Positions 1-7,523 of a stretch of 7,523 nt of DNA are shown in pieces; the stretch's first letter is position 1; every line of letters starts with the position of its first letter. Made by a program: the position numbers and the translations under genes. The stretch is from positions 1-7,523 of the IMG/VR virus record IMGVR_UViG_2579779076_000001; one strand, written 5' to 3'. Under the pieces are notes generated by a model, which searched no databases, had not been told where the DNA came from, and saw nothing but the letters and a program-made list of their open reading frames with translations. This DNA is from a virus. Lineage: Duplodnaviria; Heunggongvirae; Uroviricota; Caudoviricetes.

Positions 1-119
1 TCGGTTCCGGCTCCACCAGCACCCTGCCGCAATGAAAAACAGGCCGTGATTCGCGTCCAGGCTTAAGGACCACCAGGCCAAGTTCCGGCACCAGAACAGG
101 TCGAAGTAATACCCGCACG

Positions 120-392
120 TTACCTCCAGATACGTTGCTGGAATGTGCGGGACGGACGCGGTGGATGTTCGGAATAAGGGAGCCTGACAGAGATTATCCA
201 GTGACGATAATCGAGGCTGATGGCTTTCTTAACCTCGTATCCGCGCCTGCGGTAACACTGAATCAGCCATTCGGCCTGTTCTTCAGTGCATGGGGGATGC
301 TGGTACCAGTCGGTTTTAAATACGTGCGAATGCCGCCCCCGCTTAATGGCCGGGACGGCTTCAGAATTGTGGGATTTTATACGTTGCGCCAT
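120..392 (-). CDS. hypothetical phage protein, basic, about 90 aa
   Basis: ORF-track ORF 120..410 begins with GTG; in-frame ATG at 392..390 has GGAGAA about 6 nt upstream; TAA stop at 120-122. No family recognised. An opposite-strand ORF (135..407) in the same triplet phase lacks any RBS and was not preferred. Confidence 0.5.
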   Translation of the reverse strand: MAQRIKSHNSEAVPAIKRGRHSHVFKTDWYQHPPCTEEQAEWLIQCYRRRGYEVKKAISLDYRHWIISVRLPYSEHPPRPSRTFQQRIWR

Positions 393-442
393 CGGGTTCT
401 CCGGTGACACAGCAGGTGCCAGTTGTTCAGGCCGGCGTGCGA

Positions 443-472
443 ATTGTAAACCAGAATGCCAGGAAAAAACAA
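443..472 (-). promoter_or_regulatory. candidate sigma70 promoter for the 90-aa gene (-35 TTGTTT, about 18-nt spacer, -10 TACAAT on minus strand)
   Basis: Minus-strand TACAAT at 448..443 with weak -35 about 18 nt upstream, immediately after the hok terminator T-run; leader of about 45 nt to the ATG at 392. Confidence 0.3.
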
Positions 473-490
473 AACCCGCAGAAGCGGGTT
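463..490 (-). terminator. rho-independent terminator at the 3' end of the hok mRNA
   Basis: Minus-strand hairpin AACCCGC-UUCU-GCGGGUU (plus 473-490) followed directly by UUUGUUUUUU (plus 463-472). Confidence 0.65.
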
Positions 491-558
491 AAGTGCGGGT
501 GCATTGAGGATGCCTGACACATCAGAGGTGGCGAGGGATTTCTCCCTCGCCGGGTCTC

Positions 559-714
559 TTACTTCTCAGATTCGTAAGCTGTGAAGACAGCGACCTCCGT
601 CTGGCCGGTTCGGATTCGTACCTCGCAGAGGTCTTTCCTCGTTACCAGTACCGTTACAACGACGGTAATACAGATGACGATCAGGGCGATTAGCATCGCC
701 TTTTGCTGCTTCAT
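559..714 (-). CDS. hok: Hok/Gef-family type I toxin (51 aa, single-TM membrane peptide)
   Basis: Translation MKQQKAMLIALIVICITVVVTVLVTRKDLCEVRIRTGQTEVAVFTAYESEK matches the Hok/Gef/RelF family almost residue for residue (recalled). ATG at 714..712 with AAGGAG about 9 nt upstream; TAA stop at 559-561. Confidence 0.9.
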   Translation of the reverse strand: MKQQKAMLIALIVICITVVVTVLVTRKDLCEVRIRTGQTEVAVFTAYESEK

Positions 715-771
715 AGCCTGCTGCTCCTTGCCTTTCGGCGCATAAGAGGCTAATCTAAGTGTGCAAGTCAT
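559..771 (-). CDS. mok: mok-like in-frame upstream reading frame (70 codons) overlapping hok
   Basis: ATG at 771..769 in frame with hok adds 19 N-terminal codons; TGAGG lies about 11 nt upstream. In-frame Mok extensions are known for chromosomal hok loci (MokC/HokC, recalled). Confidence 0.55.
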   Translation of the reverse strand: MTCTLRLASYAPKGKEQQAMKQQKAMLIALIVICITVVVTVLVTRKDLCEVRIRTGQTEVAVFTAYESEK

Positions 772-836
772 AGATATGGCCTCAGATTAATGTTAAGCGT
801 CCTGCAAGACGCATAATGTTAACTGGGGCTTTTCTC
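763..836 (+). ncRNA. sok: candidate Sok-like antisense RNA overlapping the mok start and hok leader
   Basis: Plus-strand -35 TTGCCT (728-733), 17-nt spacer, -10 TAATCT (751-756), start about 763; possible 3' stem 779-785/823-829 followed by TTTTCTCT (830-837). Position and size fit the hok/sok paradigm; ends are approximate. Confidence 0.35.
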
Positions 837-883
837 TGTCTGCCTTACGTCGGCATGCCCGAGGCAGACAGCCTCAAGCACCC

Positions 884-918
884 GCAGCAATTCTACTTAA
901 CTCTTCTTTCCCCGCAAA
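884..918 (-). promoter_or_regulatory. candidate hok mRNA promoter (-35 TTGCGG, -10 TAGAAT on minus strand), start about 883
   Basis: Minus-strand TAGAAT at 895..890 with TTGCGG about 16 nt upstream. The predicted 5' end GGGUGCUUGAGGCUGUCUGCC resembles the hok tac element, and an about 418-nt transcript to the terminator matches hok mRNA size. Confidence 0.4.
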
Positions 919-924
919 CCGTTT

Positions 925-1008
925 TTATCCCCAGCGGCAAATCGAATACACCACCAGCGCCACCGCCATTGCAATTCCTACCGTTATGAACGCTTCAGGC
1001 CAGGTCAT
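925..1008 (-). CDS. 27-aa hydrophobic micro-protein (MTWPEAFITVGIAMAVALVVYSICRWG), candidate small membrane peptide
   Basis: Below the ORF-track size cut-off. ATG at 1008..1006 overlaps the upstream TGA (ATGA); GAGGAG about 10 nt upstream; TAA stop at 925-927. One predicted TM helix. Confidence 0.3.
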   Translation of the reverse strand: MTWPEAFITVGIAMAVALVVYSICRWG

Positions 1009-1520
1009 CGTAAAATATTCTCCTCGTTTATCAGTCCGTTTCGCTTCAGGTAGTCCATCGCCTTATCCGGTAATTTGCAGTCCGGCTTCGCTTTTTTCAG
1101 TTGGCTGACCAGCCGTTTAACCCACATTGCTAATTCGCTAACCTGATTGCCGGATGCTGGTGGATTGTCGGCTTTACCCAGAATGGCAGCACAGCAGGCC
1201 TCTCTGAGCACCCAGTCAACAGCATCCTTCCATGCTCCTGTTTCGACTGGCGGATTCTCACGCTTTACCTGTTCATAAAAGCGCACAGCTTTAACCAGTC
1301 CTTCTGATGTCACCGGGACTGGCGGGCCGATGAATAAGGCCTGAATTTCATAGTTCGGCCTGTCGTTACAATCCTCTTTTGTCGGTACATATTTCCAGTC
1401 ACCAGCCCACGGCTTCCCCTGAAAGTCTGTAACGTCTTTTTTCACGTAGCGATATCGCCATGCAACTGGTTTTGCCTGCCCTGCCGTTTCATGCCCTTCC
1501 TGATAATTAATCTCGCTCAT
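1005..1520 (-). CDS. hypothetical phage protein, 171 aa
   Basis: ATG at 1520..1518 overlaps the stop of the upstream 58-aa ORF (ATGA); TGA stop at 1005-1007. Trp-rich N-terminal half; no family recognised. Confidence 0.7.
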   Translation of the reverse strand: MSEINYQEGHETAGQAKPVAWRYRYVKKDVTDFQGKPWAGDWKYVPTKEDCNDRPNYEIQALFIGPPVPVTSEGLVKAVRFYEQVKRENPPVETGAWKDAVDWVLREACCAAILGKADNPPASGNQVSELAMWVKRLVSQLKKAKPDCKLPDKAMDYLKRNGLINEENILR

Positions 1521-1693
1521 TCATCGCCCCACTCATCACAATATGCTTCGACCGGAGTTTTTCCTACTTCATAATCATCACGCCATGCTTCAGCATCAGC
1601 AGCACTGCCACCACGTAACTCTGCATAGTCCATTAACAGTTCATGCCATTCTTCAAAACTGACGTTGTATTTAGTTGAACCAAAATCAGCCAT
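1517..1693 (-). CDS. small acidic protein, 58 aa (MADFGSTKYNVSFEEWHELLMDYAELRGGSAADAEAWRDDYEVGKTPVEAYCDEWGDE)
   Basis: Not in the ORF track (under 60 aa). ATG at 1693..1691 with GAGGAAG about 8 nt upstream; start overlaps the upstream stop (ATGGCTGA) and its TGA overlaps the next ATG (ATGA). Confidence 0.5.
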   Translation of the reverse strand: MADFGSTKYNVSFEEWHELLMDYAELRGGSAADAEAWRDDYEVGKTPVEAYCDEWGDE

Positions 1694-1868
1694 TTTGTTC
1701 TTCCTCTTCGTCTTTTATTTCGTGATATGAGTAATTGCAGTAGTTAAAGAAAATTTCTTTTGCTTCGTTATGAATTTCATCAGGCGTCGCATCATCATTC
1801 ACTTCGAATTCATCCTCGAAATCTCCACCGGCGATTCCCGTTTCAATAATTATTTTGAACTTTCGCAT
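1686..1868 (-). CDS. small acidic protein, 60 aa, in an AT-rich island
   Basis: True ATG at 1868..1866; strongly acidic C-terminus (DEEEEQNG); visibly AT-rich compared with flanks; preceded by a 147-nt AT-rich intergenic region containing GC hairpins. Weak SD. Confidence 0.5.
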   Translation of the reverse strand: MRKFKIIIETGIAGGDFEDEFEVNDDATPDEIHNEAKEIFFNYCNYSYHEIKDEEEEQNG

Positions 1869-2015
1869 TTCACTACCGCCCTGCCGGGCGGTCTCCTGAT
1901 GTTCTGAGGGTGCAGGAATCCCTCCGGTTAAGGATTAAATTTTATTTACAGTGCTGATTTTAATTATTCAGTTCTGGATTATGCTTTCTCTTTCACCTGC
2001 CGTAGTTCCTGGTAA

Positions 2016-2321
2016 TTAATTTCGCTCACTGGTTGCCTCCTGGAAAATAACTGCATGCCCCAGTTTCTCCGCCAGTGCCAGCTCTGCCTTAGCGCCTGCC
2101 GACCGCTGCCAGCCTTCCAGCATATAAACCGCATCCACACAACGAATCATTGCCATGCAAATATCCATGTAATGTGGCTGAGTCAGCCCGTCCGGAAGTA
2201 CTGCGGGATTTAATACGGTATGCCCTTCCTGTTTCAGTGCTTCTTCCGCCTTGTGAAACGCCTCACGGTTGAAATTTTCATATCCCGTCATCGGACCGGC
2301 GATATAAATTCTCACCCTCAC
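2016..2321 (-). CDS. DUF4406 / nucleoside 2-deoxyribosyltransferase-like protein, 101 aa
   Basis: N-terminal R-I-Y-I-A-G-P-M-T-G motif, then F-N-x-x-A-F and V-L-N-P, typical of the NDT-like Rossmann fold (recalled). GTG start at 2321..2319 overlaps the upstream TGA (GTGA) with AGGAGG about 8 nt upstream; TAA stop at 2016-2018. Confidence 0.75.
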   Translation of the reverse strand: MRVRIYIAGPMTGYENFNREAFHKAEEALKQEGHTVLNPAVLPDGLTQPHYMDICMAMIRCVDAVYMLEGWQRSAGAKAELALAEKLGHAVIFQEATSERN

Positions 2322-2599
2322 GCCTGAACCCTCCTGTCGAAATAAACGTAGTTATTCACTGCGCCCAACTTCATCCCAAACTTTTCGGCAATTTCCCGTC
2401 GGGGTACGCCACGCTGATGCAGTTGCCGCGCCAGCTCAATATCACGCTGTGAACATTTGGCTGACTGGTGATAATCACCCCGTAACATCATGCAGATACC
2501 CAGTTCCCGCGCTTTCGTCCTGACGGCAGCCCCACTACGGCCAATCAGACTGCCGATGCTTTCGACTGTCATCGTTCCCGCACACTGCCGGAGTATCAT
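2318..2599 (-). CDS. small DNA-binding protein with two predicted helix-turn-helix motifs
   Basis: ORF-track start (GTG at 2722) lies inside the upstream gene. First ATG after the upstream stop is at 2599..2597; alternatives are GTG 2635 (GTGA overlap with upstream stop) and ATG 2572. HTH-like segments VESIGSLIGRSGAAVRTKAREL and RREIAEKFGMKLGAVNNYV. Start uncertain. Confidence 0.55.
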   Translation of the reverse strand: MILRQCAGTMTVESIGSLIGRSGAAVRTKARELGICMMLRGDYHQSAKCSQRDIELARQLHQRGVPRREIAEKFGMKLGAVNNYVYFDRRVQA

Positions 2600-2631
2600 A
2601 ATTTCCGCCCAGCGCCACTTCTTCCAGCCAC

Positions 2632-3348
2632 TCACCGCAGCAGCTCTCTGGTGGCGGTAATATCCCGGAGAATATCCCTGTGTTTGTTCAGTTCCCGCAG
2701 CGCGGCGCAGACACGCTCCCACTTCTGAACCTGACCTTTTGCCCGGCGCAGCTCGCGGTTAGCCACATGCAGCGATGGTAGAATCAGGTCATCTGCTTTC
2801 GTTTCGGTGACCGATGGCTGTAACTTCACAATGTCTTCCACGATTTCTGTTTTCATTTCTTCCTGTGTCGTCGTTTCCCGGACTGGTAACGCAACACCTG
2901 CTGGCTGAGGAAAGGCTTTACCATCGGTTTCCGCTACGGATGCAGCTTCCGGCTCTGCCGGTAAATCAGCGCCCGGTATGCAGTAACGAAATTTACCGCC
3001 CTGATTTACGCGAATCAGACGCCCTTTGCTGATTGCCATGGCCAGCGATGAATTCGCCCGGCGGGAGGTAATCCCGAACATAAGTGCCAGCTCATCCGCC
3101 GTTTGTGGGCCATGTTGTTCAATCGCCTCAGTCAGCATTTGCGCTGTCACTTTCGGTACCGGTGACACTGGTTCACTTTCACCTGCCTGAGTCAGCCACC
3201 ACATCGACCCCTTGTTATCCGCTTCACCACGGCGCTTCAGTTTCCACAGTTCGTTGACCGCATCTTCACGGCTGATTCCAAGGCGGGCCGCCACTACCTG
3301 TGAAGAGGCTCTTTTCAGTGCTTTCAGTGCGTCAAATACGGTTTCCAT
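2632..3348 (-). CDS. phage protein with tandem winged-helix domains and a C-terminal coiled-coil-like tail, 238 aa
   Basis: ORF-track start is TTG (3366); ATG at 3348..3346 has GGAGGAAA 7-8 nt upstream. Two internally similar wHTH-like segments (residues about 5-55 and 70-130) with shared GxKFRY-like ends; helical charged C-terminus. TGA stop at 2632-2634. Confidence 0.7.
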
Positions 3349-3381
3349 TAAAATTTCCTCCGACAAAATCGTTTCCCAGAT

Positions 3382-3843
3382 TCAAATAAAACCAGCAGCC
3401 TTCCGGCGTTCGTATTCCTGTTTCAGCCGTTCAATTGGCGTTGGCCCTTTCGGGTGTTTCGCCCCTTCCAGTTGTCGTCGCACTGGCGGAACACTCATCC
3501 CGTTACCAACATGCTTTGCCCATTTCGTCAGTTGCCGTTCCGCAAGTCGTTTTAACTCACCCTGCGTCATCTGGCGCTCAATCCCTCTGGTACGCATTTC
3601 GAGGCAGATGTGGTACAGCACAGGCTGTGGCCACGGGTATTTATCACTCCCGTCGTATCGCCAGGATTCATTGCGCCAGCGCCGGTACTCTTCCATCACG
3701 GCATCCACCGTAAGACCAAATGGATTTGCCCCACTCTCCGAAATCAGCGCAACAAACTCAGCCAGGTCCGGGGGCCACGTTTCACCCGCCCGGCAGCGGT
3801 CCATGCACTGACGGCAGACCAGACGGATTTGCTGTTCAGTCAT
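3382..3843 (-). CDS. lambda P-like replication protein (DnaB helicase loader)
   Basis: C-terminal two-thirds aligns by eye with lambda P (PPDLAEFVALISE versus PSPGQFVAWCREE; YPWPQPVLYH versus YPWKSNAHYW, recalled). Start chosen at ATG 3843..3841, overlapping the O-like stop (ATGACTGA). ORF is open up to ATG 4044, which has a good SD, so a longer 220-aa form is possible. Confidence 0.7.
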   Translation of the reverse strand: MTEQQIRLVCRQCMDRCRAGETWPPDLAEFVALISESGANPFGLTVDAVMEEYRRWRNESWRYDGSDKYPWPQPVLYHICLEMRTRGIERQMTQGELKRLAERQLTKWAKHVGNGMSVPPVRRQLEGAKHPKGPTPIERLKQEYERRKAAGFI

Positions 3844-4867
3844 CGCACCAATCTGGGCAATCCAGAGCTTCGAAGGTGCGGCCCCGTTCTTCTGAGTCCA
3901 GCGGTTCGAATACACCTCCCCCATAAGCTCCCACAGCTTCCAGGCCATTTCCGTTGCTGATAAATCCGTTGTCACGTTCCCACTGTTCGCGTGCTGCCCG
4001 GATTTCCTGAACTGCCCGTGATGCCGTGCCACCTGATGCTGCATGGCTTACCCCCTTGCTGACTGGTTTTACCTGTGCCCTGACGTGCTGCACGTGACGG
4101 GCAAATTTCTGCTCCCACTGAACCTGCGTGAAAACCTTCCCCTCCGCCATCCAGTAATCCCGGAATGCGGCAAGCTCAGCAGGTGTAAATTCCGGCTCAG
4201 GCAGAGCCATACCCCACACTGCTGCCCGTTGTCGAAAATCCGGCGACGGCTGCCAGACAGTAGTCATCGAAAATTTCCCGATGGGTTCGCTCAGGCCGTC
4301 CAGGTATTCAGGTTCGGCTGTCTGCAACGGCGCACCATTCGACTCACTGGTCGGAATACTCTCGCGCGCGTTATGTGTGGGGTTTAATTCTGTATCTGTA
4401 TCTTTATCTGTCGTGACTTGTCGTGACAGATGCGTGACACGTCGTGACTCATCGTGACAATCAGCATTATGTTTCCGCAGCTTTTCCCGCTCCCGCTGCG
4501 CTCTCTTACGCTCTGCCGGGGATTTTGCCGTTTGCGAAACGTTACCATTGTCCTCTTTCAGCACCTGACGTTTTTCCCATCCGGAAATAAGGTCACCATC
4601 CAGAACCCGCCCCTGCATTGCATGCAAAATTGAATCAATTACGTCTTCCGTCACATCAAGCGCACTTGCTAAATCTTCCGTCGTGACATCAATGTGACCA
4701 CGTAGTGACACGCCGTGACATGTCGTGACATTTCGTGACGCGCTCACCAGAAGGTGGATATACACTGCCATCACTGTTGCGATTGGCTGTCCTGATACCC
4801 TGGCAATCGTTCGCCACTTGGGGTCATTTGGCATGTCATGCCACAATCTGAGCCAGGCATTAGCCAT
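3836..4867 (-). CDS. O-like replication initiator / replisome organizer (N-terminal DNA-binding domain, DnaT-like C-terminal region)
   Basis: ORF-track start is GTG (4873); ATG at 4867..4865 has GAGGTG 3-4 nt upstream. Sits directly upstream of and coupled to the P-like gene and carries internal iteron arrays. Family assignment (DUF1376/DnaT-like) is from recall. Confidence 0.75.
   Translation of the reverse strand: MANAWLRLWHDMPNDPKWRTIARVSGQPIATVMAVYIHLLVSASRNVTTCHGVSLRGHIDVTTEDLASALDVTEDVIDSILHAMQGRVLDGDLISGWEKRQVLKEDNGNVSQTAKSPAERKRAQREREKLRKHNADCHDESRRVTHLSRQVTTDKDTDTELNPTHNARESIPTSESNGAPLQTAEPEYLDGLSEPIGKFSMTTVWQPSPDFRQRAAVWGMALPEPEFTPAELAAFRDYWMAEGKVFTQVQWEQKFARHVQHVRAQVKPVSKGVSHAASGGTASRAVQEIRAAREQWERDNGFISNGNGLEAVGAYGGGVFEPLDSEERGRTFEALDCPDWCDD
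4386..4458. repeat. iteron array 1: AT-rich direct repeats followed by five CGTGAC-core repeats at about 10.5-bp spacing (candidate origin)
   Basis: GTGAC at 4413, 4423, 4434, 4444, 4454 (spacings 10, 11, 10, 10), preceded by AT-rich ctgtatctgtatctttatctg (4390-4410). Lies in the linker-coding part of the O-like gene, as lambda ori does in O. Confidence 0.6.
4650..4739. repeat. iteron array 2: six GTGAC-core repeats at helical spacing plus one inverted GTCAC
   Basis: GTGAC at 4683, 4694, 4705, 4715, 4725, 4735 (spacings 11, 11, 10, 10, 10); inverted GTCAC at 4650-4654. Inside the N-terminal coding part of the O-like gene. Confidence 0.55.
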
Positions 4868-4935
4868 ACTCACCTCTTCTGATACCGAACTTTACCCACG
4901 AACTTCCGGAAGAAATCCGGTATAAATATTGTTGG

Positions 4936-5361
4936 TCAATGCACAACAACTGCATTACCAGGCTGACCACCACTGTTAGTCAGGGTGCCCCAGGCGATCG
5001 CTACAGCGACAAAATCATCCACATCTTTCACCAGCCGATCCCGTCGTTCGACGATCTCCCGGTAATATTCAGAACTGTGACTGCGCATACGGGCCACCAG
5101 CAAAGGCGGCATCGCCTTTTCGATCGCCGGTAACAGAGCCTGCATTTTTTCAACAGCATCAGGGGTGTCTTTATCCAGCCAACGGAAAATTTTCTGGGTA
5201 TTACGGGCCAGGGCTTCCGGATGGCTGTCGTCGTACAGTTCAGGGAACGTCATCCCCAGTTCGAAATAAGTCCGGGCTATTTCAGCTGCGGGAACTTTCT
5301 CACCGTCAGGATATGCCCAGGCATTCATCGCCATGCGGATGTGCTCATGCTTGATTTTCAT
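4936..5361 (-). CDS. ydaT: YdaT-family protein at the cII position of the immunity region
   Basis: N-terminus MKIKHEHI and length of about 141 aa match my recollection of YdaT proteins. ATG at 5361..5359 overlaps the Cro-like stop (ATGA) with GAGGAA about 8 nt upstream; TGA stop at 4936-4938. Confidence 0.65.
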   Translation of the reverse strand: MKIKHEHIRMAMNAWAYPDGEKVPAAEIARTYFELGMTFPELYDDSHPEALARNTQKIFRWLDKDTPDAVEKMQALLPAIEKAMPPLLVARMRSHSSEYYREIVERRDRLVKDVDDFVAVAIAWGTLTNSGGQPGNAVVVH

Positions 5362-5573
5362 GAATCATTCCTCATTTCGTGCGAGGTGTTATTCTTCTTT
5401 TTGTACAGCTCTGGGTTGTATTTCAATTCACCACCAGTAATTTCATCCAACTCAATTGCTCGAAGTTTTGGAATAACAGATTTCCACCGAACAACAGCCA
5501 CGTGTGAAATTCCCAGAGCCTCTGCTACTAGCCGCTTTTTTTTGAAATAGCGTAGGACATCATCTTTAAACAT
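5358..5573 (-). CDS. Cro-like / YdaS-like small HTH regulator, 71 aa
   Basis: ORF-track start is TTG (5609), inside the operator region. ATG at 5573..5571 has GGGGGAA 4-5 nt upstream. HTH segment LVAEALGISHVAVVRW; divergent from the CI-like gene across palindromic operators. Confidence 0.7.
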   Translation of the reverse strand: MFKDDVLRYFKKKRLVAEALGISHVAVVRWKSVIPKLRAIELDEITGGELKYNPELYKKKNNTSHEMRNDS

Positions 5574-5599
5574 AAATTCCCCCTGTAAAACCGAACCTA

Positions 5600-5664
5600 A
5601 AGGTAACAATAGTTACATGATAATGTCAACCATAGTGACATCCATTGGTAGTAACATTGGTTAC
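5600..5664. promoter_or_regulatory. OR-like operator region with leftward PR-like promoter
   Basis: Palindromes GTAACAATAGTTAC (5603-5616), TGTCAACCATAGTGACA (5624-5640) and GTAACATTGGTTAC (5651-5664) at about 23-25-bp centre spacing. Minus-strand -35 TTGACA (5629..5624), 18-nt spacer, -10 TACCTT (5605..5600), overlapped by the first operator. Confidence 0.55.
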
Positions 5665-6339
5665 ATGAACACTACTATTAGCGAACGCATCCGAAAGCGT
5701 CGAAGAGACATAGGTCTAACCCAACAGCAGGTTGCAAAGGCTATCGGCGTCACCCGTGTATCCGTAACAAAGTGGGAAAATGGTTCAACAAAACCGGACG
5801 GTGAGAATTTACATCTGCTGTCAAAACTGTTTTCCAAATCACCTGAATGGATTCTTTATGGGAAAGATATTCACGATCAAGTCGATGATTTGCGATTGAA
5901 TCAACTCCCCTACCTTAGTGACAACATCACCCGGTTGCCCGTTTTAACGTGGGAACAGGCTGGTTACTGGGATATGAGCTACCCAGTAACCGAAATCCCT
6001 GGTATTAAGAATTGGGTTGATGTCATGACAAAAACATCTGAAAACTCTTTTTTATTGCGCGTTGAGGGAGATTCAATGACAAACTCTAACGGTTTGCCAA
6101 CGATCCCCGACGGCTCCACGGTGTTGATCACTCCATGCTCTGGCAACATTGGGGAGATGGCGGGAAAGATTGTTCTAATCCAACTAGAAGGAATACCAAC
6201 TGTAACACTGAAAAAAGTCGCAATTGATGGCCCAAACATCTACCTACTGTCATTAAATCCGCTTTACAAGCCTATAGAACTCAATGGTCGCTACACCATT
6301 AAAGGTAAAGTCTCACAAATCCATCAATACTTAGATTGA
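5665..6339 (+). CDS. CI-like repressor: XRE-type HTH N-terminal domain plus S24 (LexA-like) autopeptidase C-terminal domain
   Basis: HTH segment LTQQQVAKAIGVTRVSVTKWENG; C-terminal domain with GDSM (Ser) and KK (Lys) dyad context. ORF-track ATG at 5617 would place two operators inside the coding region, so ATG 5665, abutting the third operator, is preferred (leaderless-like, as lambda cI from PRM). Alternative start 5617. TGA stop at 6337-6339. Confidence 0.8.
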   Translation: MNTTISERIRKRRRDIGLTQQQVAKAIGVTRVSVTKWENGSTKPDGENLHLLSKLFSKSPEWILYGKDIHDQVDDLRLNQLPYLSDNITRLPVLTWEQAGYWDMSYPVTEIPGIKNWVDVMTKTSENSFLLRVEGDSMTNSNGLPTIPDGSTVLITPCSGNIGEMAGKIVLIQLEGIPTVTLKKVAIDGPNIYLLSLNPLYKPIELNGRYTIKGKVSQIHQYLD

Positions 6340-6345
6340 CCAAAA

Positions 6346-6368
6346 GCCCGCATATATTGCGGGTTTTT
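6346..6368 (+). terminator. rho-independent terminator after the repressor gene
   Basis: Stem 6347-6352 / 6358-6363 (CCCGCA / TGCGGG) with 5-nt loop, followed by TTTTT (6364-6368), 7 nt after the stop codon. Confidence 0.7.
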
Positions 6369-6381
6369 CACACGCCTTTAT

Positions 6382-6429
6382 GTAACTTATAGAACACGCA
6401 TTGACTCAACGAGTAACTTCTGTTACCTT
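6382..6429 (+). promoter_or_regulatory. OL/PL-like operator-promoter for rightward early transcription
   Basis: Perfect operator GTAACTTCTGTTAC (6413-6426) and degenerate GTAACTTATAGAAC (6382-6395). -35 TTGACT (6401-6406), 17-nt spacer, -10 TACCTT (6424-6429): the same -35 / operator / -10 layout and identical -10 hexamer as the PR-like promoter. Confidence 0.5.
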
Positions 6430-6605
6430 CATTGCGTACCCACCCCGTCCCACAGAACGCCGGGCAATACTTCGAGTTACCCGGCAGTGGTCAGGGGTTA
6501 AGTAGCCAGCCCGAGGCGTATGAACATGACGGCGGGAACACTTTGTATAACAGCGCAGCAGGTTTTTAGTTCCGCTACCCGGCGTTAAGGGGAAATGAGG
6601 TCAAC

Positions 6606-6758
6606 ATGGATACGCTCAATCTTGGCAACAACGAATCTCTGGTATGCGGCGTGTTTCCCAACCAGGACGGCACGTTTACCGCGATGACGTATACCAGAAG
6701 CAAAACGTTTAAAACTGAAGCTGGCGCGCGTCGCTGGTTAACCAGAAACACTGACTGA
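6606..6758 (+). CDS. small protein, 50 aa (MDTLNLGNNESLVCGVFPNQDGTFTAMTYTRSKTFKTEAGARRWLTRNTD), possibly YdaF-like
   Basis: Not in the ORF track. ATG at 6606 with GAGGT about 5 nt upstream; TGA stop at 6756-6758 overlaps the next ATG (TGATG). Resemblance to Rac YdaF-type small proteins is a weak recollection. Confidence 0.5.
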   Translation: MDTLNLGNNESLVCGVFPNQDGTFTAMTYTRSKTFKTEAGARRWLTRNTD

Positions 6759-6769
6759 TGAGGTTGACG

Positions 6770-7144
6770 ATGGAATTTAAAGATTTACCACTACCATTCC
6801 AGGAAATGGCTGCGAATATAGTTCGTTCTCAACTGGCCACTCTTGACCTGAGTACCGTAGAAAAAGAAACCATCGATAATATATCCGGTAACGTACGCCG
6901 AGCCTTTATCGGGCTGTACGAAGAGAAGCAGCTCTCTGATAACCAGGATTTACATGAAAAATACTTTCTGGAATTAATGGACATCATTAATAAAGGATTT
7001 GGCTTGTTAATGAAAAAGAAAGGGATTCGAATAGCTCCCCTTGAAAATCATTTTACAGCAAGCAGTATTAACTCCTGTGATTTAAAGCATCACACATCCG
7101 ATGGGAAAGTTGAATCAAACAACAAAATATCAATTAATCATTAA
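6770..7144 (+). CDS. hypothetical AT-rich cargo protein, 124 aa, first sizeable gene of the PL-like operon
   Basis: ORF-track start 6758 (ATG) has no SD; ATG 6770 has GAGGT 6-7 nt upstream. Visibly AT-rich, Lys/Asn/Ser-rich C-terminal half; no TM segment; no family recognised. TAA stop at 7142-7144. Confidence 0.65.
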   Translation: MEFKDLPLPFQEMAANIVRSQLATLDLSTVEKETIDNISGNVRRAFIGLYEEKQLSDNQDLHEKYFLELMDIINKGFGLLMKKKGIRIAPLENHFTASSINSCDLKHHTSDGKVESNNKISINH

Positions 7145-7455
7145 TTTATTCACGGGTGAGGTAGAGCGCGTGCGCCGGACACGGATAAGAATCCGGCACT
7201 GACAGTTTACTGAAAGAACATATCCCTGAAAAGTCAGGGCATAACACGAAAGCGCACGGCGAGAATATAAGGCTTGTCGTTAAATTTAATTCGATCGTGC
7301 GCTTCCGGTTGTGGCAATCCGCGAAATGGCGCGGCGGTAAGTATGGCTGGGGCTTCCTCCATTGCTCCAGAAAATGCACCGGGTTGTCAGGTTGACCATG
7401 CGCCTGAGTGACAACACCGCCACAACAACCTCTGTTATCACTTTTCTGGTGATTC

Positions 7456-7481
7456 GGCGGAAATGGATATCCGCCATTTTT
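7456..7481 (+). terminator. candidate rho-independent terminator (plus strand)
   Basis: Stem GGCGGA (7456-7461) / TCCGCC (7470-7475) with 8-nt loop, followed by ATTTTT (7476-7481). No convincing upstream CDS in 7145-7455, so the transcript it ends is unclear. Confidence 0.45.
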
Positions 7482-7523
7482 AAAGTGTATTTTGTGATGC
7501 GGTGAATGCGGCTAAGCGCACGC

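Follow-up and report, generated by a model that had tools for sequence, protein, structure and literature searches.

A portable Shine-Dalgarno-hairpin-AUG cassette ahead of two small acidic genes in the early operon of a Stx2a prophage: a possible split ribosome-binding site

The 7,523-nt stretch of DNA analyzed here (the window; positions 1 to 7,523 of IMG/VR virus record IMGVR_UViG_2579779076_000001, Caudoviricetes) represents the PR early operon of a Stx2a lambdoid prophage. According to the open reading frame (ORF) listing, all relevant genes are on the minus strand. Two of these code for acidic proteins of 60 and 58 amino acids (aa) and follow a conserved noncoding leader. At the end of this leader, a Shine-Dalgarno (SD) sequence, a GC-rich hairpin and the start codon of the 60-aa gene succeed each other in an arrangement that recurs ahead of unrelated genes. 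The best overall explanation is that this region is a mosaic cassette of about 0.5 kb with a split ribosome-binding site that is bridged by the hairpin. We attribute a probability of about 0.5 to this explanation. The geometry of the cassette and its conservation are observed, whereas bridging is what we infer from them, with odds that are even at best. The coordinates of all features are listed in Table 1.

The SD sequence (AGGAG) adjoins the 5' base of the hairpin and, in linear distance, is 24 nt away from the ATG. Its duplex with the anti-SD is computed at -7.4 kcal/mol. The hairpin has a free energy of -15.2 kcal/mol (z = -3.3), its pair probabilities are 0.94-1.0 (in a 190-nt context), and it is separated from the ATG at 1868 by only 6 nt (AGUGAA). 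The AUG is mostly unpaired in the predicted fold. A preliminary description of this DNA had reported a 6-bp GC hairpin 6 nt before the ATG of the 60-aa gene. The hairpin and its distance from the ATG are confirmed, and the stem proved to be one pair longer (7 bp). Lone 7-bp hairpins are not rare in 7.5 kb of DNA, and several are listed in the window. This one is not a chance feature, because its conservation in many phages extends to its flanks (see below).

In the proposed split site, the hairpin would fill 18 of the 24 nt between the SD sequence and the AUG. With the hairpin looped out, the SD sequence would be placed about 6 nt from the AUG. The 58-aa gene would be translated from an SD sequence of its own (GAGGAA), and translation of the 171-aa gene would come next, via an ATGA overlap. 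There is a precedent in phage T4 (Nivinskas et al. 1999; Malys & Nivinskas 2009; both as reviewed in PMC3014915). The spacing between SD sequence and AUG drops from 22 to 5 nt in T4 gene 38 and from 27 to 11 nt in T4 gene 25 (PMC3014915). In both genes, the structure enhances initiation, and destabilizing it reduces initiation (PMC3014915).

The arrangement is not tied to the two small genes. About 100 nt of the leader (1868-1971) recur in other prophages ahead of different genes, and without the two small genes, as found by BLAST. The leader alignment (A5) has a mean column identity of 86%. In the BLAST-derived alignment, the conserved sequence consists of an invariant AGGAG, one further nucleotide, the stem strand CCGCCC, the loop and the strand GGGCGG, which is followed by TA(G/A)T(G/T)AAA(AA)ATG. 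The loop is GAAA in most copies but GGCA in the window, where the stem is intact. In contexts of the type found in phage ArgO145, the remaining leader is absent, and the stop codon of the upstream gene is located 5 nt before AGGAGG. Thus, the minimal conserved unit consists of the SD sequence, the hairpin and the start codon.

Viral contigs were also scanned for the hairpin only, without an SD requirement, which resulted in 89 distinct contexts. In 53 of the 89 contexts, a GGAG-type SD sequence is directly 5' of the hairpin and a start codon is found 6-11 nt 3' of it. This distance is counted from the 6-bp core used in the scan, so that the 60-aa gene has 7 nt, equivalent to 6 nt from the 7-bp stem. 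The sequence before the hairpin is TCAGGAG(G/A) or a variant (TCGGGAGG, TCCGGAGG, TCAGGAGA) that retains the GGAG core. As to the other contexts, many of them represent ordinary terminators of unrelated phages, in which the hairpin is combined with T-runs. The cassette precedes at least six unrelated families (DUF7167, which is the family of the 60-aa protein, MTELTK, DUF4014, Phage_antitermQ, MQDIKEN and the small terminase). The MTELTK proteins encoded downstream of it vary in length. Individual examples of the TCAGGAGG-hairpin cassette are found ahead of Phage_antitermQ (contigs L238 and L249), of a 72-aa DUF4014 membrane protein (L024) and of a P2-type small terminase (L255). Three single IMG/VR contigs (L024, L055 and L115) have two copies of the cassette before different genes (in L115, at minus-strand offsets 2873 and 4569). 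Thus, the cassette is a dispersed repeat within one genome and possibly a substrate for recombination.

The divergent DUF7167 genes from other genera, as retrieved by exact-protein look-up, have an ordinary SD sequence 5-8 nt from the ATG and lack the hairpin. Thus, the cassette belongs to this E. coli phage lineage rather than to the gene. Additional divergent DUF7167 loci on which the presence of the hairpin could be checked were sought in two scans. The scan of genome contigs yielded three loci, and that of viral contigs only near-identical ones.

The preliminary description had suggested that the hairpin may gate translation. It is indeed part of the translation start region, but a simple gate fits less well than bridging, because AGGAG is immediately 5' of the hairpin and because the cassette is found before at least six families, including Q. 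If the hairpin were a gate, the functional SD sequence would be its 3' arm (GGGCGGU), locked in the stem, and translation would occur only once the stem is opened. The opening might result from translational coupling, with a ribosome that terminates on an upstream ORF, or from the action of a factor in trans. The 3' arm would be suited to this role, with -7.9 kcal/mol for its duplex with the anti-SD and a distance of 6 nt from the AUG, and the stem is predicted to be closed nearly always. In the short contexts, where the upstream stop codon nearly abuts the AGGAGG, a terminating ribosome could reach the stem. In the window, however, the nearest upstream stop codon (1979-1981) is about 110 nt away, so that coupling could not open a stem of -15 kcal/mol. 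Gating also leaves aside the perfect AGGAG(G) that is conserved directly 5' of the stem, with the GGAG core kept even in the variants. Moreover, the same cassette precedes the Q antiterminator and the small terminase, which are genes that require expression. We rank gating below bridging and consider it unlikely, because the stem is predicted to be closed essentially always, because the upstream stop codon is so distant and because the cassette serves Q.

Several points weigh against bridging. (i) The 3' arm is itself SD-like and binds the anti-SD slightly better than AGGAG (-7.9 versus -7.4 kcal/mol). As it is located 6-11 nt from the AUG, the same distance at which a bridged SD sequence would be placed, spacing cannot separate bridging from the sequestering of a second SD sequence. 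(ii) The predicted accessibility of the SD sequence is moderate (0.13-0.70 per nt), and RNAalifold also pairs UCCU (1929-1932) with the AGGA of the SD sequence (1894-1897). (iii) While 95% of the stem cells in the alignment are paired, about 5% are unpaired. (iv) Covariation was computed for three candidate stems and is not significant, since in 141-290 of 500 trials the values obtained by shuffling are up to those observed. (v) The hairpin (-15 kcal/mol) may exceed the structures from T4 in stability by a considerable margin. (vi) The strong conservation of the leader could simply result from recent recombinational spread.

As to the stem itself, the changes are mostly C-to-U, so that the coding strand has U-G pairs at these positions, and a double change was seen once (CCACCC/GGGTGG). 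Within the leader, AAUCC (1929-1933) is able to pair with GGAUU (1917-1921), which would compete with the GAGGG/CCCUC stem (1906-1924). The alignment columns of both alternative pairings (UCCU/AGGA and AAUCC/GGAUU) are all invariant.

The leader and hairpin might also have no role in translation. They might be a conserved boundary sequence that homologous recombination between lambdoid phages both maintains and uses, or they might represent an RNA element for mRNA stability, processing or protein binding. Such a role is suggested by the fact that the same stretch of about 30-100 nt is found before at least six unrelated gene families, that some contigs have two copies, that direct repeats bracket the cassette (see below) and that covariation is not significant. 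Moreover, GC stems that carry a C(GAAA)G tetraloop are typical of stable motifs with a structural or protein-binding role. Conservation is, however, sharpest from the SD sequence to the ATG, and it persists where the remaining leader has been lost. In all families, the distance between stem and start codon stays within 6-11 nt, a constraint that a pure recombination site does not need. The GGCA loop of the window runs contrary to recognition by a loop-specific protein. The lack of a U-tract speaks against an intrinsic terminator, and there is no Rfam match in the spacer. Altogether, we regard a role outside translation as doubtful.

Two specific candidates of this kind were rejected. An intrinsic terminator would require a U-tract, but beyond the hairpin the coding strand reads AGUGAAAUG and the other strand TCTCCTGATG, and a terminator scan found none. 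In unrelated phages, the same hairpin is used with T-runs. The other candidate is a boxB-like element. For a Lambda-type boxB, a GNRA-like loop is needed for the binding of N, together with a boxA partner close to the start of an early transcript. The cassette resembles boxB, the nut-site hairpin from phage Lambda, in that an early transcript has a GC stem whose loop is of the GNRA type, namely GAAA, in most copies. It differs in that the stem in the window has 7 bp with a true tetraloop (GGCA). It is also remote from the cro-cII and N leader positions, with cro about 3.7 kb upstream of it. A search in the 18.6-kb prophage segment gave only one match, with one mismatch, and no partner motif; boxA was not searched for. 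At E <= 1, the region 1869-2015 did not match any known RNA family from Rfam.

In the explanation that we favor, the SD-hairpin-AUG unit also serves, at the DNA level, as a conserved junction for gene exchange between lambdoid phages, because the same cassette is found before at least six unrelated gene families.

Both small ORFs are real genes, given their matches to Pfam and PHROG, their homologues across genera, the codon-position pattern of polymorphism, the preservation of intact copies and confident AlphaFold2 models. Each gene is represented by 30-32 distinct DNA variants, and polymorphism is concentrated at the third codon position, the numbers of polymorphic sites at the first, second and third position being 12/12/26 for the 60-aa gene and 23/24/47 for the 58-aa gene. 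About 95% of the copies of both genes are intact. The two proteins are as strongly acidic as initially described (pI ~4.1). The 60-aa protein has 18 Asp and Glu residues, a net charge of -13, an isoelectric point (pI) of 4.13 and eight aromatic residues. The corresponding values for the 58-aa protein are 16, -12, 4.05 and nine. The ORFs overlap, as had been stated in terms of chained stop and start codons, but the overlap comprises 8 nt (ATGGCTGA) rather than the 4-nt ATGA. An ATGA (1517-1520) is found at the next junction, where the 58-aa gene stops and the 171-aa gene starts. The codons for the acidic tail of the 60-aa protein (GAA GAG GAA GAA CAA AAT GGC TGA; 1694-1712, minus strand) house the SD sequence (GAGGAA) and the start codon of the 58-aa gene. 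Thus, the tail sequence is doubly constrained in this lineage.

The base composition is atypical. The GC content is 0.366 in the 60-aa gene and 0.435 in the 58-aa gene, compared with a window average of 0.50. At third codon positions, it is 0.36 and 0.27, respectively, versus 0.51-0.62 in neighboring genes. The lowest sliding-window value (0.34) is reached at 1651-1800. The 147-nt spacer upstream of the 60-aa gene is heterogeneous, with 0.45 overall, 0.23 at 1936-1978 and 0.66 at 1869-1900. Thus, the AT-richness originally attributed to both the 60-aa gene and its spacer applies to the gene but only in part to the spacer. Further AT-rich patches are found in the window at about 5350-5700 and 6950-7150.

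The 60-aa protein is assigned to the Pfam family DUF7167 (PF23768) with 51.6 bits versus a cut-off of 24.4, its residues 2-53 being aligned to profile positions 1-60 of 60. It also matches phrog_1997 (1.4e-29). This is a full-length match above the curated cut-off; membership in this family gives the protein a name but no explanation. The identical locus at NCBI is annotated as DUF7167 family protein. A profile search detected homologues with 35-70% identity in Citrobacter, Klebsiella, Yersinia, Pseudomonas and a metagenome-assembled genome from Bacilli. The homologues keep the core F-E-V-[ED]-D-D-A-T. The AlphaFold2 model has a beta-beta-alpha topology followed by the acidic tail, with a predicted local distance difference test score (pLDDT) of 86.7. 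A literature search for DUF7167, PF23768 or the accession numbers returned no mention.

Some public annotations of DUF7167 proteins (P0002, P0004, P0007 and P0009) have 84-87 aa and extend the protein upstream through the hairpin (MNFIKSLTGGISAPSEHQEA...). This extension is confined to a leader variant with AAA at the position of the in-frame TAA present in most copies. For the window, an N-terminally extended form of 87 aa is ruled out by the in-frame TAA at 1935-1937. Such a form is also disfavored because the same leader precedes MTELTK genes with a spacing that is 2 nt longer, and thus in another frame. The annotations of 84-87 aa are likely start-site mis-calls due to the unusual ribosome-binding site.

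The 58-aa protein matches phrog_519 (2.6e-22), a PHROG of unknown function. The match is confined to the C-terminal part (profile positions 76-137 of 143), and neither Pfam nor NCBIfam has a family for this protein. The family is narrow, with 67 clusters at E <= 0.001 among 1.84 billion representatives, and its members are mainly stand-alone proteins of 50-65 aa. The exhaustive search of the representatives was also considered as a route to remote homology, but beyond the narrow family it returned only weak matches to repetitive proteins, which look spurious or very distant. The AlphaFold2 model has three helices (pLDDT 84.5).

As to function, the preliminary description had compared the two acidic proteins to DNA mimics and anti-defence proteins such as Ocr and ArdA. 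The proteins would then inhibit restriction-modification, BREX or similar systems early in infection. This would be consistent with net charges of -13 and -12 on compact, confidently predicted folds. It would also be consistent with the location of the genes in early operons among accessory genes, and with their mosaic distribution over phages, prophages on plasmids and an IncFII plasmid. The two proteins share with Ocr and ArdA their small size, their strong acidity and the location of their genes in the early regions of mobile elements. They are, however, much smaller, and neither resembles these proteins in sequence or fold. Among solved DNA-mimic or anti-defence proteins, no sequence or fold match was found for either of them. 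Thus, we consider a function as DNA mimic or anti-defence protein quite improbable. Our best guess is that both are small modulators that bind to proteins and are produced at an early stage of infection or induction. We can further speculate, with little confidence, that TCAGGAGG-hairpin-AUG is a self-contained, portable module for translation start and recombination, by which lambdoid prophages plug unrelated genes, from accessory genes to Q, into early operons, while its hairpin loops out and thereby connects a distant SD sequence with the start codon. Separately, and with equally little confidence, DUF7167 and the 58-aa protein might each represent a new family of small acidic proteins that inhibit host defence or proteins that bind DNA.

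The window region 1450-2080 and a prophage from E. coli JNE170426 are 100% identical. The genes of this prophage are arranged in the order LexA-like cI, Cro, YdaT, O-like, P, DUF1627, a helix-turn-helix protein, DUF4406 and DUF7167, followed by two hypotheticals, Hok, DUF968, RusA, a methyltransferase, tRNAs and stx2AB. Given this order, the block sits in the delayed-early rightward operon at the position of the nin region. The cassette (1497-2037) is located between the replication module with DUF4406 on one side and the region with Ea22/DUF551-like genes, hok/sok, RusA and Q on the other. It consists of the conserved noncoding leader and two independent small acidic genes, which would be co-transcribed with the operon. 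Out of 5426 complete E. coli genomes, 2733 contain some part of the region 1450-2080, with a coverage of at least 80% in 1461 of the 2733. In phage ArgO145, both small genes are instead placed in the leftward (PL-side) accessory region.

The two small genes do not depend on each other. In Citrobacter, Klebsiella, Yersinia and Pseudomonas, DUF7167 has unrelated small genes downstream. In Enterobacter prophages, the 58-aa gene directly follows Ead/Ea22-like genes and DUF7167 is lacking. The latter is also the case on an IncFII plasmid contig (L222, gene at 2501-2677), where the 58-aa gene is located between a DUF1187 gene and a Band_7/NfeD pair; thus, it travels outside of prophages. An obligate two-gene system is ruled out, as each small gene is found without the other. 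To judge from these genomic contexts, the DUF7167 gene and the 58-aa gene are separate mosaic units.

A direct repeat of 32 nt brackets exactly the block that had been flagged in the preliminary description. It encodes the Ea22-like N-terminal motif SEINYQE. The upstream copy marks the start of a remnant ORF, which has the same N-terminal motif as the 171-aa gene, and relatives carry full Ead/Ea22-like genes at the position of this ORF. No empty site or excision product was found, the cassette being present in all of the best-matching genomes listed (30 of the 53 with both flanks). On the coding (minus) strand, a scan for sigma-70-like promoters in the region 1400-2400 was negative; this was a weak scan that recognizes consensus promoters only. 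No terminator-like site was found in the same region.

Early on, the AT-richness of the 60-aa gene and its spacer had been taken to suggest a horizontally acquired moron. The block shares with morons that it is an inserted block of atypical base composition between conserved genes, and its nature as an exchangeable unit is borne out by the 32-nt repeat and by its placement in ArgO145. Morons, however, have their own promoter and terminator, whereas neither was detected for this block and its genes are tied to the early-right operon by stop/start overlaps. Therefore, we read the block not as a strict moron with signals of its own but as a mosaic nin/ea-type lambdoid cassette that is exchanged at conserved boundary sequences.

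Table 1. Features of the cassette and its immediate neighbors (positions in the window).
Feature	Positions	Strand	Remarks and basis
Conserved noncoding leader	1869..1978	-	weak AT-rich stem at 1954-1971; GAGGG/CCCTC stem at 1906-1924; then SD sequence and hairpin
Shine-Dalgarno sequence AGGAG	1893..1897	-	adjoins 5' base of hairpin; 24 nt (linear) to ATG
7-bp GC hairpin ACCGCCC-GGCA-GGGCGGU	1875..1892	-	arms 1875-1881 and 1886-1892; 4-nt loop; within initiation region of 60-aa gene
60-aa acidic protein, DUF7167 family (MRKFKIIIETG...)	1686..1868	-	ORF list, Pfam, PHROG, homologues, polymorphism, AlphaFold2
58-aa acidic protein (MADFGSTKYNVSFEEWHELL...)	1517..1693	-	ORF list, phrog_519, polymorphism, AlphaFold2
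DUF4406 gene, nucleoside 2-deoxyribosyltransferase-like	2016..2321	-	upstream, last gene before cassette; ORF list, Pfam, PHROG, annotation
171-aa gene, phrog_660 (MSEINYQE...)	1005..1520	-	downstream; ORF list, PHROG
32-nt direct repeat, upstream copy	2006..2037	.	81% identical to 1497-1528; spacing 509 nt
32-nt direct repeat, downstream copy	1497..1528	.	covers start of 171-aa gene (MSEINYQE...)
16-codon remnant ORF (VSEINYQELRQVKEKA*)	1979..2029	-	ORF list; starts in upstream repeat copy; overlaps DUF4406 stop codon

Two further elements were observed on the minus strand of the window. The first is a hok/sok type I toxin-antitoxin locus (559-883). It is recognized by an Rfam match to sok (RF01794, 113 bits, 709-883) and by a Hok-family ORF within 559-771, which is annotated as Hok/Gef family protein in the identical genome. 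The second is a sub-threshold Rfam match (469-550, 29 bits versus a gathering score of 50) to isrK, an Hfq-binding small RNA. The matching stretch terminates in a perfect 9-bp hairpin (530-551), and it may represent a prophage small RNA or a terminator upstream of the DUF968 gene.

If bridging is true, the split ribosome-binding site would be extended from two T4 genes to a widespread, portable cassette of temperate coliphages. About half of the complete E. coli genomes have matches to the region, Shiga-toxin prophages being among them. Late genes are controlled by the Q antiterminator, which the cassette would drive in some phages. Bridging would also have consequences for genome annotation, since gene predictors that expect an SD sequence 5-10 nt upstream would mis-call such starts, the 87-aa extensions being an example. 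In screens of early phage modulators, the two acidic proteins could reasonably be included as candidates; by themselves, they represent ordinary hypothetical genes of the nin/ea region.

T4 genes 38 and 25 are the closest parallel to the proposed split site. In each case, the SD sequence is too distant in linear terms (24 nt in the window, 22 and 27 nt in T4; more than about 15 nt counts as too long for direct initiation). The hairpin lies wholly between SD sequence and AUG, and the working spacing would be about 6 nt in the window, compared with 5 and 11 nt in T4. As in T4, the arrangement is kept in close relatives and is absent in distant ones. The window differs in representing a temperate lambdoid phage, and in its GC stem, which has 7 bp, a free energy of -15 kcal/mol, an SD-like 3' arm and, in most copies, a GAAA loop. 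It also differs in that its cassette is portable, being found with at least six gene families rather than one gene, and in that it is known from sequence and prediction.

The block as a whole can be compared with the nin/ea regions of lambdoid phages. Mosaics of these phages reportedly have accessory genes in the nin/ea regions and conserved boundary sequences (Juhala et al. 2000; Clark et al. 2001). The block has in common with these regions that small, non-essential early genes are located between the replication genes and Q. As in other lambdoid mosaics, short conserved junctions are found beside non-homologous genes, and the same genes may occur in the PL or the PR operon, depending on the phage. 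What sets the block apart from such junctions is that, here, the junction sequence coincides with a structured cassette for translation start.

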